Of a stretch of DNA of 64,000 nucleotides, positions 11,107 to 48,082 are shown piece by piece. The position numbers were made by a program, and so were the translations under genes. Origin of the DNA: an uncultured Acetatifactor sp. Its GTDB lineage: Bacteria > Bacillota > Clostridia > Lachnospirales > Lachnospiraceae. Within the stretch, counting starts at the first letter, position 1. Each line of letters starts with the position of its first letter. The notes below the pieces were generated by a model. That model had not been told where the DNA came from and ran no database searches. It was given only the letters and a program-made list of their open reading frames with translations. The DNA lies in NCBI GenBank assembly GCA_947625675.1, contig CANQPH010000009.1:3896-67895 (forward strand), in the 5' to 3' direction.

Positions 11107-11158
11107 GACACCCGTTTTCGGGGGCCGAACGGATCGGCCTTCGGAGGCGGGTGTTTTT
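11107..11158 (+). terminator. Rho-independent terminator after secDF
   Basis: GACACCCG...CGGGTGTT followed by a T-run. Confidence 0.6.
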
Positions 11159-11288
11159 GTCCCATTTGGAGACGGCGGCTTTTATTCTATCTTGCAAAAA
11201 AAGAATGCCGGATGTAAAATGAAATTAGTCATAAGTGTTGATTCATCGGTGCAATATCACAGGCAAGCCTGTGATATGCAGGGGTATA

Positions 11289-11397
11289 AGATTGGAAATA
11301 GCCTTTCGGCTATTTCCAATCTCGGGATTTGTGCTGCCGCACAAAGTCCCCTAAATTCAAATGCCGCCTGAACGGCGGCAGAATGAGAGGAAGAATG
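11289..11397 (+). repeat. Dispersed three-hairpin intergenic element, copy A (upstream of recJ)
   Basis: AGATTGGAAATAGCC/GGCTATTTCCAATCT; GGGATTTGTGC/GCACAAAGTCCC; TGCCGCC/GGCGGCA; then GAATGAGAGGAAGAATG. Confidence 0.85.
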
Positions 11398-13290
11398 GAA
11401 AAATGGTTTGTCAGCGCCAAGAAAGCGGATTTTAACGGTTGGGCCAGGGAATTCGGCATTTCGCCGGTCCTGGCCCGGATCATCCGGAACCGGGACGTGA
11501 CGGAGGAAGAGGACGTCAGGAAATTTTTGGAGGGAACCCTGGAGGACTGTCACAGTCCCTGGCTTCTGCATGGCATGGAAGAGGCGGTGAACCTGATTTT
11601 GGAGCGGGTTGCTGCGGGAGATGCCATTCGGGTCATCGGGGACTATGACGTGGACGGCATCTGTTCCTCCTATCTTTTGACCAGAGGGCTTTCCCTCCTG
11701 GGCGCCAGGGCGGATACGGCCATCCCTCACCGCATTCATGACGGATATGGGCTGAATGTGCATTTGATCGAGGAGGCGGCGAAGGACGGCATCCGCCTGA
11801 TTCTCACCTGTGACAACGGCATCGCCGCCTATGAGCAGATCGAGCTGGCGGGAAAGCTGGGAATGCAGGTGGTGGTGACGGATCACCACGAGGTGCCTTT
11901 CGTCATGGAGCAGGGTGTGCGGAAGGAGATCCTTCCCCCGGCGGCCGCCATCATCGACCCCAAGCAGCAGGAGTGCGCTTATCCACAGCCCAATATCTGC
12001 GGGGCGGTGGTGGCTTATAAGCTGGTGCAGGCCCTGTATGAGCGGGTTCGGCAGAACGAGGACTTCCGGGAGGAGGCGGCCGGCCGAAAGAGTTTTTCGG
12101 GAAATGCGGCTGAAGGGAAAGATTTTCGGGAAGATGCGAGCAGCCGAAAGAGTTTTTCGGAGAAGGAGGACGAGAGGAAAGACTTCCTGGAAGAGGCGCT
12201 GGAGTTCGCCGCCCTGGCCACCGTGTGCGATGTGATGGAGCTGCAGGGAGAGAACCGCATTCTGGTTCGGGAAGGATTGAGACGTCTGGCCAAAAGCCGC
12301 AATCCCGGACTGAAGGCCCTGATAGAGGTGAGCGGGATCGATCCGGTCAGGATCTCCGCCTATCACCTGGGGTTCGTGATCGGCCCCTGCCTGAACGCCA
12401 CGGGACGCCTGGATACCGCCCACCGGGCTCTGGAGCTTCTGCAGAGCCATTCCAGGGCGGAGGCTCTGAGGGCTGCCGAGGAGCTGAAGGAACTGAATGA
12501 CAGCCGCAAGAATATGACCAACCAGGGGGCAGAGCAGGCCCTTGCCTATGTAAAAGAGCATCATCTGGATCAGGATTCCGTGATGGTGGTTTATCTGCCG
12601 GAACTTCATGAGAGTCTGGCCGGCATCATTGCCGGGCGGGTGAGGGAAAGCTGCCATCATCCCGTGTTCGTCCTGACCTTGTCGGAGGAGGGGGTGAAGG
12701 GTTCCGGAAGGAGCATCGAAGCCTACCATATGTATGAACATTTGACCCTGATCAAGCAGTGCTTTGCCAAATTCGGGGGGCATAAAATGGCGGCGGGCCT
12801 GACCCTGGCGAAGCTTTTCGATACTCCGGAGGAGGACGTGGAGAATTTCCGGGAGCTTTTGAACCGGACGGCAGGGCTTGCGGCGGAAGATTTCATCCCC
12901 CGCATTCATATTGACATGGCGATGCCCCTGGATTATCCGGACATGGCGCTGGCGAAGGAACTGGAAAAGCTGGAACCCTTCGGGGCGGGCAACCCCAGGC
13001 CCTTGTTCGCTCACAAGAACCTGCATTTTGTCCGGGGATCCCTGATGGGGGCAAAGCAGAATTTCGCCAGGTATCGGGTACGGACGGAGCAGGGAAGGGA
13101 ACGGGAACTGGTATTTTTCGGGGAACTGGAGAAATTTCATGAGTTCTTGGAGGAAAAATTCGGTCCCTCCAGTGTCCGGAATCTATATGCGGGAAGCGGT
13201 GATTACTGCATCTCCATTACCTATCAGCTGGGAATCAATGTCTATCAGGGCCGGGAAAACCTACAGTTCATCTTACAAAATTATTGTTAA
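11395..13290 (+). CDS. recJ: Single-stranded-DNA-specific exonuclease RecJ
   Basis: GDYDVDG, TCDNG, TDHHE (DHH), GSGRS, GGHKMAAG, LEPFGAGNP. Confidence 0.95.
   Translation: MEKWFVSAKKADFNGWAREFGISPVLARIIRNRDVTEEEDVRKFLEGTLEDCHSPWLLHGMEEAVNLILERVAAGDAIRVIGDYDVDGICSSYLLTRGLSLLGARADTAIPHRIHDGYGLNVHLIEEAAKDGIRLILTCDNGIAAYEQIELAGKLGMQVVVTDHHEVPFVMEQGVRKEILPPAAAIIDPKQQECAYPQPNICGAVVAYKLVQALYERVRQNEDFREEAAGRKSFSGNAAEGKDFREDASSRKSFSEKEDERKDFLEEALEFAALATVCDVMELQGENRILVREGLRRLAKSRNPGLKALIEVSGIDPVRISAYHLGFVIGPCLNATGRLDTAHRALELLQSHSRAEALRAAEELKELNDSRKNMTNQGAEQALAYVKEHHLDQDSVMVVYLPELHESLAGIIAGRVRESCHHPVFVLTLSEEGVKGSGRSIEAYHMYEHLTLIKQCFAKFGGHKMAAGLTLAKLFDTPEEDVENFRELLNRTAGLAAEDFIPRIHIDMAMPLDYPDMALAKELEKLEPFGAGNPRPLFAHKNLHFVRGSLMGAKQNFARYRVRTEQGRERELVFFGELEKFHEFLEEKFGPSSVRNLYAGSGDYCISITYQLGINVYQGRENLQFILQNYC
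12061..12197 (+). repeat. In-frame 60-bp tandem repeat inside recJ
   Basis: Units at 12061, 12121 and a partial one at 12181; identical core GCCGAAAGAGTTTTTCGG at 12083 and 12143. Confidence 0.9.
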
Positions 13291-13560
13291 TCGCCGATTT
13301 TTAAAAACTTTATGGAAAGTTTACGATTTTTTTATAAAACGTACATACTATGGACATATTTAGGGGGTAATATGCAGTTAGATAGTTGATAAACTCACTA
13401 TCTCCCCCCTCATAAGAAAATCGCGAAAAGCTTCGGCATAGTTCCGGAGCTTTTTGCGGTGTAAAATGCGGTAGCGGCATAAAAGTGCATGAACAGCGGG
13501 GAGAGTGAGGAAAACGGTAACGGTATTGTGGGAATTTCCGCAATGTGGAAAACGAGGCAT

Positions 13561-13629
13561 AAGATTGAAAGTTGATATTTTCAATCTTAGATTGGCCGCC
13601 TGAGCGGCGGAGGAAGGCGAGGAAAGATG
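13561..13629 (+). repeat. Shortened variant of the dispersed hairpin element (upstream of the cyclophilin gene)
   Basis: AAGATTGAAA/TTTCAATCTT hairpin, then GCCGCCTGAGCGGCGG, then GAGGAAAGATG. The middle hairpin is absent. Confidence 0.6.
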
Positions 13630-23784: not shown

Positions 23785-23840
23785 TTCCGCCCGGGAACGG
23801 CGGCGGACGGAGGATCGGTTTTAGCAATAGAATGGAGAAA

Positions 23841-23941
23841 AGATTGAAAATTAAAATTTTCAATCTTGGGATTTGTGCTGTCGCACAAAGTCCCCTTGAG
23901 TCAAATGCCGCCTGATCGGCGGCAGAATGAGAGGAAGTATG
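23841..23941 (+). repeat. Dispersed three-hairpin intergenic element, copy B (upstream of pknB)
   Basis: 74 of 81 nt identical to copy A from CAATCT to the ATG; 5' hairpin AGATTGAAAAT/ATTTTCAATCT. Confidence 0.88.
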
Positions 23942-25874: not shown

Positions 25875-26019
25875 GTATGAAAAATAAGCTCGATAGCTTA
25901 TTTTTCATACGGCGATTTGTGCCGGAGTGTCACAAATCGCCCTGATGGCAGATTAGAAATCGCATTCGCAATTTCTAATCGCCCCGTCGCATAAACGCTC
26001 CGGAATGAGGATTAAAATG
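25875..26019 (+). repeat. Related multi-hairpin element upstream of rsgA
   Basis: Perfect 16-bp stem 25875-25910, GGCGATTTGTG/CACAAATCGCC, GATTAGAAAT/ATTTCTAATC, tail GAATGAGGATTAAAATG. Confidence 0.6.
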
Positions 26020-26892
26020 CAGGGTAAGATTGTGAAGGGAATCGCCGGTTTCTACTATGTCCATGTCCCGGGACGGGGTGTGTATGAATGCAAGGCCCGG
26101 GGAATTTTCCGCAAGGAGAACCAGAAACCCCTGGTGGGAGACGACGTATGTCTGGAAGAGCTTCCGGAAGCCGGGAAAGGGAACATTACGGAGATTTTGG
26201 AGCGCAGAAGCGAGCTTCTGCGCCCTTCGGTGGCCAACGTGGATCAGGCCATGGTTATCTTTGCCATAGAAAAGCCCCAGCCCAATTTTAATTTGTTGGA
26301 TCGCTTTCTCGTCATGATGGGGCAGCAGAATTTGCCCTGCATCATCTGCTTTAATAAACTGGATCTCGATGAAAGGCGACAGGGAGAGGAATATTGCCGA
26401 ATCTATGAACGGTGCGGATACCGCTCCCTGGCGGTCAGCGCCAAAACGGGGCAGGGGCTGGAAGAGGTAAGGGCCCTGCTGACGGGGCACACTTCCACGG
26501 TGGCTGGGCCCAGCGGCGTGGGAAAATCCTCCCTCATCAACGGCCTGCAGACGGAAGTAGTCATGGAGACCGGGGAGATCAGCCGCAAAATAGAGCGGGG
26601 CCGTCATACCACCAGACATTCGGAACTCATTGCCCTGGGAAAGGATTCCTACATATTGGATACGCCGGGCTTCAGCTCTCTGGGGCTGTTTGACCTGGAA
26701 AAGGAGCAGCTGGCTTCTTTTTACCCGGAATTCGGCGCATATGAGGATCAGTGCCGCTTCGCCGGTTGTTCCCATGTGGCGGAGCCGGATTGCGGCGTGA
26801 AGCGGGCCCTGGCGGAAGGAAAACTGTCCCCCATCCGGTATGAGAACTATTGCCTGCTGTATGAAGAATTGAAAAATCGCAGGAAATATTGA
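26017..26892 (+). CDS. rsgA: Ribosome small subunit-dependent GTPase A
   Basis: NKLD, GPSGVGKSS, GRHTT, DTPG, and the C-terminal CRFAGCSHVAEPDC Zn site. Confidence 0.95.
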   Translation: MQGKIVKGIAGFYYVHVPGRGVYECKARGIFRKENQKPLVGDDVCLEELPEAGKGNITEILERRSELLRPSVANVDQAMVIFAIEKPQPNFNLLDRFLVMMGQQNLPCIICFNKLDLDERRQGEEYCRIYERCGYRSLAVSAKTGQGLEEVRALLTGHTSTVAGPSGVGKSSLINGLQTEVVMETGEISRKIERGRHTTRHSELIALGKDSYILDTPGFSSLGLFDLEKEQLASFYPEFGAYEDQCRFAGCSHVAEPDCGVKRALAEGKLSPIRYENYCLLYEELKNRRKY

Positions 26893-47976: not shown

Positions 47977-48025
47977 GGCATACCTGACAATGGGGGCGAA
48001 TCGTGCGGAAAACGAGCGCAGCTGT

Positions 48026-48082
48026 ACAAAGTCCCTTTGAGTCAAATGCCGCCTGATCGGCGGCAGAATGCGAGGAAACATG
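48026..48082 (+). repeat. Dispersed hairpin element, copy C (3' half), upstream of aroE
   Basis: ACAAAGTCCCTTTGAGTCAAATGCCGCCTGATCGGCGGCAGAATGCGAGGAAACATG, nearly identical to copy B. Confidence 0.85.

Follow-up and report, generated by a model that had tools for sequence, protein, structure and literature searches.

Repeat elements at start codons in the window

The window analysed here is the whole stretch of 64,000 nt at C9:3896-67895 (contig CANQPH010000009.1, assembly GCA_947625675.1) of an uncultured Acetatifactor sp. The assembly is an Acetatifactor-like MAG of 3.10 Mb (101 contigs, 53.6% GC), which is 94% complete; the gene calls made on it here are crude. In front of recJ, three hairpins (H1, H2 and H3) are followed by a tail that carries a Shine-Dalgarno (SD) sequence and stops 2 nt short of the ATG. 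The region upstream contains a terminator (11108-11154) and a candidate promoter (11192-11220); as the latter precedes the element, the element is placed in the 5' UTR. No promoter-like site was found inside the element in the two copies scanned. The features of the recJ copy and the other copies present in the window are the following:

11280..11288, + strand: 5' flank of the recJ copy, SD-like AGGGG and spacer TATA directly 5' of the element (read from the sequence)
11289..11322, + strand: H1 of the recJ copy, long variant with a 15-bp stem
11324..11350, + strand: H2 of the recJ copy, GGGATTTGTGC/GCACAAAGTCCC, with loop CTGCCGC complementary to GCGGCAG at 11375-11381
11362..11380, + strand: H3 of the recJ copy, TGCCGCC-TGAAC-GGCGGCA
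11381..11394, + strand: tail and spacer of the recJ copy, GAATGAGAGGAA at 11381-11392, SD GAGG at 11387-11390, 2-nt spacer GA
11395..13290, + strand: recJ; ATG at 11395, the native start, conserved in congeners
13562..13626, + strand: copy with H1 and H3, without H2, and with the diverged tail GGAGGAAGGCGAGGAAAG
23841..23938, + strand: pknB copy, short H1 at 23841-23866, H2 at 23868-23894, H3 and tail to 23936, 2-nt spacer; ATG at 23939
25876..26016, + strand: family 2 copy before an ORF termed rsgA (ATG at 26017), H1', H2' with loop CCGGAGTG, H3' and CGCTCCGG-AATG-AGGA
48024..48079, + strand: aroE copy, 5'-truncated, 3' half of H2, linker, H3, tail and 2-nt spacer; native ATG at 48080

The AGGGG run 5' of the recJ copy is probably the orphaned native SD of recJ. 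Just upstream of it, the recJ leader also contains a perfect 10-bp hairpin (ATATCACAGG-CAAG-CCTGTGATAT, 11253-11276) unrelated to the repeat family. The 13562 copy, located upstream of a 224-aa ORF starting at 13627, has an SD-like GAGG on its 5' side (13554-13557), and the 5' flank of the pknB copy, AGAATGGAGAAA (23829-23840), is SD-like and also resembles an element tail. The family 2 copy opens H1' with ATG instead of the TTG of other copies and has compensating stem changes; its H2' loop, CCGGAGTG, pairs with CGCTCCGG directly upstream of AATG-AGGA. The H3-plus-tail pattern occurs three times in the window and the H2 pattern twice, for 0 expected from dinucleotide-preserving shuffles. On the minus strand, H3 (11362-11380) with TTTGAATTT, a T-rich linker, scores as intrinsic-terminator-like, and the element might block antisense transcription. 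A previous sequence-only reading of this DNA had described three clear copies, at recJ, pknB and aroE, whose hairpins and tails lie where it claimed, and two variants. One of these, at 13561, does belong to the family but is made of H1 and H3 only, while the other, at 25875 before rsgA, is a member of a separate sister family with its own H3 and tail.

Genome census and geometry of family 1

Family 1, to which the recJ copy belongs, is a repeat of ~105 nt with about 75 copies in the genome. A search with nhmmer and a model of H3 plus tail gave 75 matches at E<=0.03, and a degenerate pattern of the H3 3' arm and tail found 74 sites, so that the many copies predicted genome-wide from the window do exist. 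The invariant 3' part consists of the hairpin GCCGCC-loop-GGCGGC followed by AGAATG-N-GAGGAA, where N can be any of the four bases. For 62 of the 74 pattern sites, the spacing between GAGGAA and ATG is exactly 2 nt (54 sites), 3 nt (7) or 4 nt (1), and the bases of the 2-nt spacer are free to vary. The ATG following the tail is the start of an ORF of at least 90 aa at 54 of the 74 sites, and every family 1 copy is co-oriented with the downstream ORF. The placement and the direction of this repeated family with respect to the ATG are strict. The few copies with no gene behind them have ATA instead of ATG, or ORFs of 2-3 codons. According to the crude gene calls, 31 of 68 copies lie at most 200 nt from an upstream co-directional stop. 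A Pfam scan of ten downstream genes returned phosphoesterase, TrmB, HisD, RNase III, Dxr, IspA, RsmG, DnaJ, a LysR regulator and NifU; the genes downstream of family 1 are unrelated and share no common function.

Only nine copies are full-length (H1-H2-H3, 104 nt), with pairwise identities of 92-99% (mean 95%). The remaining ones are devoid of 5' modules, and most lack any H1. The points where homology starts on the 5' side are clustered: at H1, in its long or short variant, at the foot of H1, in the 3' half of H2 and, most often, in the linker or H3. Starts at the H1 foot correspond to deletion of the hairpin interior (AAGA|AATCTC). Five contigs of the genome (C8, C18, C39, C66 and C87) end inside an element, which implies that the true copy number is higher than counted. 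Together, the near-identical full-length copies and these contig ends indicate that family 1 was amplified recently.

Two copies have an unusual organization. Upstream of dnaJ (C3:72603-72722, minus strand), a tandem arrangement consists of an H2-H3-tail copy, a 22-codon ORF and a second hairpin and tail directly before dnaJ. On contig C16 (minus strand, about 26034-26095), a decayed H1-H2 copy has its H3 and tail replaced by unrelated sequence; this relic lies in an AT-rich spacer, with ~360 nt between it and the start codon of a large ORF downstream, and is among the few copies that do not abut a start codon.

A sister family with the same layout

Family 2 is built as AGATTG-H1', H2' (TTTGTG-CCGGAGCGT-CACAAA), TGATGGC, H3' and CGCTCCGG-AATG-SD. 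About 10 copies are present in this genome. Of 131 congeners sampled, 23 have the family, the maximum being 19 copies in one genome. The two families have the same layout with unrelated pairing sequences; GAAUG-N-GAGG is conserved across both families and across species.

The start codons are native and a second SD-like run lies upstream

The recJ orthologues of 29 + 29 congeneric genomes all begin with ATGGA(A/G)AA(A/G)TGG preceded by an ordinary SD, and none carries the element. In a search of 269 genomes of the genus, nucleotide homology of recJ begins at the ATG or within about 20 nt upstream of it in about 240 genomes. Likewise, the aroE orthologues (n=22) keep the same ATG and have no family 1 copy. 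Judged by these orthologues, family 1 is absent from both loci in related species, and the ATG of recJ and aroE is a native host start, not one borne by the element. Because this ATG is conserved in element-free orthologues, the element came in upstream of pre-existing starts and supplies the SD but not the ATG. The proposal that the element delivers both ribosome-binding site and start codon thus stands for its first half, the SD being at a fixed distance, and falls for its second. In the nearest congener (G009:C142; L234/L212), a family 2 element precedes aroE at the same place as the truncated family 1 copy here, so that a single site is occupied by different families in two species.

Directly before AGATTG, a variable purine run is followed by a spacer of 3-5 nt (GAGGTATA, GGAGAAA, GAGGTGAA etc.). 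One of the 4-mers GGAG, GAGG or AGGA is found within the 13 nt 5' of H1 in 16 of 21 copies, compared to 9.8% of random intergenic positions (p=1e-12). An SD-like run is also present 5' of family 2 in 12 of 13 copies from 8 genomes, and copies in other species have similar purine runs at their 5' edge. Since these bases vary from copy to copy, in copies with about 95% identity elsewhere, they belong to the flank and not to the element. When the 5' flank is joined to NN-ATG, the geometry of an ordinary ribosome-binding site is obtained, including in one operon a coupled junction, GAGG-TGA(stop)-AGT-ATG. With a second SD-like run directly on its 5' side, the element would occupy the spacer between SD and ATG, and we infer that it was inserted there. 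Some flanks resemble element tails (AGAATGGAGAAA at pknB, TCCGGAACGGAGG at C53), which suggests nesting into older copies.

We saw no empty site: the nearest RecJ among 5.8 billion proteins is 68% identical, a joined-flank query for the operon junction on C35 gave no alignable orthologous junction, and an exact-protein look-up of AroE returned no record. Logan contigs of rabbit-gut runs are fragmented and broken at the repeat.

Distribution across species

The 109-nt composite is absent from 30 relatives, and a metagenome scan for H2 gave no match. Lachnospiraceae MAGs of rabbit and mouse gut, with the labels Acetatifactor, Roseburia or Eisenbergiella, have the 3' arm with tail, GGCGGCAGAATGNGAGGAANNATG, at more than 105 loci. 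This genome has 40 exact tails and three other species have 33, 39 and 48; among 250 other Lachnospiraceae genomes, 10 have 1-4 each (they represent 9 of 249 other genera, plus one congener). Reversed-pattern controls gave 0. The other species have their own concerted variants of linker and loops, and H1 and H2 modules are present there too. Among 97 element-bearing genes elsewhere, 48 have an orthologue here and only 3 of these 48 carry the element in this genome. Insertion sites are, to judge from this comparison, independent between species. In some pairs of related species, H3 and tail are found at the same locus with diverged flanks.

RNA folding and covariation

Family 1 RNA is predicted to fold into three hairpins (z=-5.1 and -5.5) with the SD and the AUG unpaired; the fold of family 2 has z=-5.2. 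Paired cells make up 91% of an alignment of 20 family 1 sequences; compensatory changes occur at 4 pairs of H2, and the only variation in H3 is by G.U. In family 2 (29 sequences, >15 genomes), 93.5% of the cells are paired compared to 82% in shuffles, 13 of 29 pairs change on both sides and the observed covariation was reached by 0 of 500 shuffles. Covariation therefore supports the hairpins predicted for both families, for H3 of family 1 by G.U changes only, and shows that selection acts on the folds.

A longer-range contact was also found. In family 2 the H2' loop pairs with 8 nt ending in the GG of GGAAUG. This pairing has variants (CCGGAGCG with CGCUCCGG, CCGAAGCG with CGCUUCGG) and G.U intermediates, with no A.C mismatches; 96% of the 8 bp are paired, and loop position 4 with its partner is GC in 14 sequences, AU in 11 and GU in 4, with 0 mismatches. 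Covariation hence supports a pseudoknot that joins the H2' loop to the bases directly preceding AATG-SD. The counterpart in family 1, CUGCCGC with GCGGCAG, is 95% paired with only G.U variation and no double changes, and it competes with H3. A single-stranded fold, including its contact to the bases next to the SD, is therefore under selection, and the covariation of the pseudoknot suggests that the element does more than insulate passively.

Relation to known RNA and mobile element families

At gathering score, Rfam 15 detected two tRNAs only in the whole window, and E-value scans with both families gave chance-level matches only, in line with the initial reading, which could assign the element to no named family. 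The best resemblance is to the aspS RNA RF02930, which likewise has a hairpin, a GC hairpin (GCCGCCC..GGGCGGC) and then GAGAGGA. With the window copy at 17.3 bits and the best copy of the genome at 32.5 bits, membership was rejected against the gathering threshold of 42.5 bits. Among 40 relatives, no aspS RNA scored above cut-off; 300 Clostridia genomes had no match either, which says little because the control genomes of that scan were without match too. A riboswitch was also rejected, as had been anticipated from the sequence: the family is dispersed and modular, the downstream genes are unrelated and the element is common to only 3 of 48 orthologous genes.

Membership of a REP- or MITE-like class, which had been proposed, did not hold. 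No Y1 (HUH)/RAYT transposase (PF01797) is encoded in the 94% complete assembly, with control genomes positive. Terminal inverted repeats are lacking: the element starts with AAGATTGG, which is no inverted copy of the GAGGAA at its 3' end, and the palindromes are internal only. As for target-site duplications or att-like repeats, flank-to-tail similarity within a copy is not above that between copies (permutation p=0.27). A MITE was rejected for the lack of terminal inverted repeats and target-site duplication, and a REP/REPIN for the absence of RAYT and for the single orientation and fixed ATG distance, unlike palindromes found in either orientation or as inverted pairs. A mini element derived from IS110/IS1111 was discarded because the assembly contains no DEDD transposase (PF01548); IS copies are often lost from MAGs, and such an enzyme may be supplied in trans from unassembled DNA. 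The search for an autonomous master copy led only to the C16 locus, the sole H2 without a following H3, which is a decayed relic. A conserved leader peptide was ruled out, since subfamilies use different frames. With respect to the REP2 type of repeat, the element is dispersed, lacks terminal inverted repeats, has internal stem-loops, lies immediately upstream of ORFs and carries a ribosome-binding site, a likeness of kind and not of homology. The element-borne promoter and ATG of REP2 were rejected here, given the two scanned copies without promoter-like site and the ATG conserved in element-free orthologues.

A repeat that would substitute its own SD

On balance, the data favour a lineage-specific, non-autonomous repeat of modular hairpins that sits in the SD-to-ATG spacer and substitutes its own SD for that of the host gene. 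The element would insert at SD-ATG spacers, or survive only there, and compensate with its own SD. A position in the spacer would uncouple the native SD from the ATG, hence the need for a replacement. This role would be played by the unpaired GAGGAA 2 nt before the host ATG, behind the conserved GAAUG and a GC-clamp hairpin. The host gene would then be translated from the element's SD, with the old SD left stranded at the 5' edge. Spread may proceed by site-directed insertion at SD-ATG spacers using a partner enzyme. As RNA, the hairpins could insulate the message, add to its stability and prevent the new SD from pairing; where neighbouring genes are co-directional, protection may extend to the cistron upstream. 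Contact between the H2 loop and the bases before the SD may modulate how accessible the SD is. The 5'-shortened copies are probably decay products, which would survive because only the 3' SD module is needed. Counting against this reading, H3 and tail kept at orthologous loci of some species pairs also fit a selected cis-element. The search that saw no empty site, the lack of a Y1/RAYT or IS110 DEDD gene, of terminal inverted repeats and of target-site duplications, and the covarying pseudoknot weigh against it as well.

A bolder version, which we put forward tentatively as a possibility, is that of a self-propagating pseudoknotted RNA leader homing to ribosome-binding sites. It would recognise SD-ATG spacers and put dozens of unrelated genes per genome under shared post-transcriptional control, with at least two sister families in turnover among Acetatifactor-like gut bacteria.

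The retention of H3 and tail at some orthologous loci would also be expected of a cis-regulatory RNA leader exerting global translational control in response to a protein, a small molecule or a physical signal, kept by selection with mobility secondary, where pairing of the H2 loop switches the SD. The covarying family 2 pseudoknot (8 bp, 96% paired, 0 of 500 shuffles), the same layout achieved by two families with unrelated pairing sequences and the conservation of GAAUG-N-GAGG across families and species all speak for such a leader; in family 2, CUCC in the pre-AAUG segment has the SD's GGAG as an alternative pairing partner. However, the downstream genes have no function in common, the sites are unconserved between species (3 of 48), neither recJ nor aroE orthologues have family 1, recent amplification is indicated by near-identical copies and by breaks in the assembly, and the family 1 loop pairing varies by G.U only. 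We also know of no ligand or binding protein for the element, which weighs against this explanation. Altogether we consider it unlikely.

The stranded SD could alternatively drive a short ORF from the TTG of AGATTG (ATG in the window's family 2 copy), running through H1-H2 and stopping before the gene, with reinitiation at the element SD, so that the old link between ribosome-binding site and gene is restored. The SD-like run is indeed 4-8 nt before the TTG, the ORFs have 12-40 codons, and 27 of 28 measured stop within the interval from 79 nt before the gene ATG to 5 nt after it, the exception being one family 2 copy whose ORF stops 101 nt short of the ATG. For 11 of 14 family 2 copies, H2' is followed by the stop within 0-6 nt, and one copy has changed TTG to ATG with compensating stem changes. 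This coupling cassette nevertheless appears improbable: the peptide is unconserved and subfamilies read different frames, the TTG is buried in a very stable stem, most copies lack H1, and the stops could be due to chance in an AU-rich linker. A DNA-level site like REP/BIME, for nucleoid or topoisomerase binding or for recombination, whose relation to ribosome-binding sites is a by-product of where such DNA is tolerated, is very improbable. In its favour, hairpins would form in single-stranded DNA too and H3 with the T-rich linker is terminator-like on the opposite strand; against it, the one-orientation rule, the exact 2-nt distance to the ATG and an SD within the element exactly where the ribosome needs it would be unexplained, and there is no RAYT.

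Consequences for annotation and genome biology

In the copies with a 2-nt spacer, including the one at 11383-11397 of the window, the ATG within the tail (AGAATG) shares the reading frame of the gene ATG; the exception is N=T, which creates ATG-TGA. The database RecJ has 635 aa compared to 631 aa from the conserved start, i.e. it is 4 residues longer. This points to a systematic annotation artefact, in which gene callers choose the tail ATG. Assembly is affected as well, as contigs break at repeat copies. If the substitution of SDs by the repeat is true, about 3% of the genes in several gut Lachnospiraceae would be translated from a repeat-borne SD, and selfish DNA could persist in compact genomes by repairing the site that it disrupts. 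The element would then also be a natural, portable and insulated ribosome-binding-site cassette for organisms without genetic tools, and its covarying pseudoknot a candidate new class of structured RNA, absent from Rfam.

Comparison with known systems

REP/BIME, REPINs (mobilised by RAYT), the pneumococcal BOX, RUP and SPRITE, Correia elements and mycobacterial MIRUs are likewise short, structured, high-copy and intergenic, and BOX (A/B/C) is modular as the present element is. MIRUs sit at operon junctions and affect translational coupling. Unlike the element, none of these repeats is known to keep a fixed distance to a start codon or to carry an SD; moreover REP needs RAYT, and the MITE-type members have terminal inverted repeats and target-site duplications, both absent here.

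The IS900 group of the IS110 family reportedly targets translation-initiation signals, and IS900 is said to insert between ribosome-binding site and ATG in one orientation, without terminal inverted repeats or target-site duplication. The element shares with IS900, so described, the SD-to-ATG spacer, the fixed orientation, the lack of inverted repeats and the lack of target duplication. IS900 itself is autonomous, 1.4 kb long and equipped with a DEDD transposase, whereas the element has about 105 nt, finds no DEDD transposase in the assembly and brings a new SD.

The TAACTGA direct repeats of Beggiatoaceae are found a few nt from the start codons of unrelated genes and are suspected of translational control (PMC4679880). 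They resemble the element in being dispersed, short and close to the starts of unrelated genes, but they are arrays of an unstructured heptamer with neither hairpins nor SD.

Neisseria REP2 (CREN) and Borrelia IR-A/IR-B are dispersed repeats of 100-150 nt without terminal inverted repeats and with internal stem-loops (Delihas 2011, PMC3184786). Always oriented the same way, they directly precede unrelated ORFs and contain the ribosome-binding site; Neisseria REP2 also carries promoter and ATG (PMC3184786). Compared to REP2, the element has no promoter or ATG of its own and an about 3-fold higher copy number, and the phyla are unrelated; it also has a loop-to-pre-SD pseudoknot and a stranded second SD, which are undescribed for REP2, and two co-existing families. 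By kind and not by homology, Neisseria REP2, with Borrelia IR-A/B, appears to be the closest precedent: repeats that carry a ribosome-binding site in this manner are rare, with precedents.
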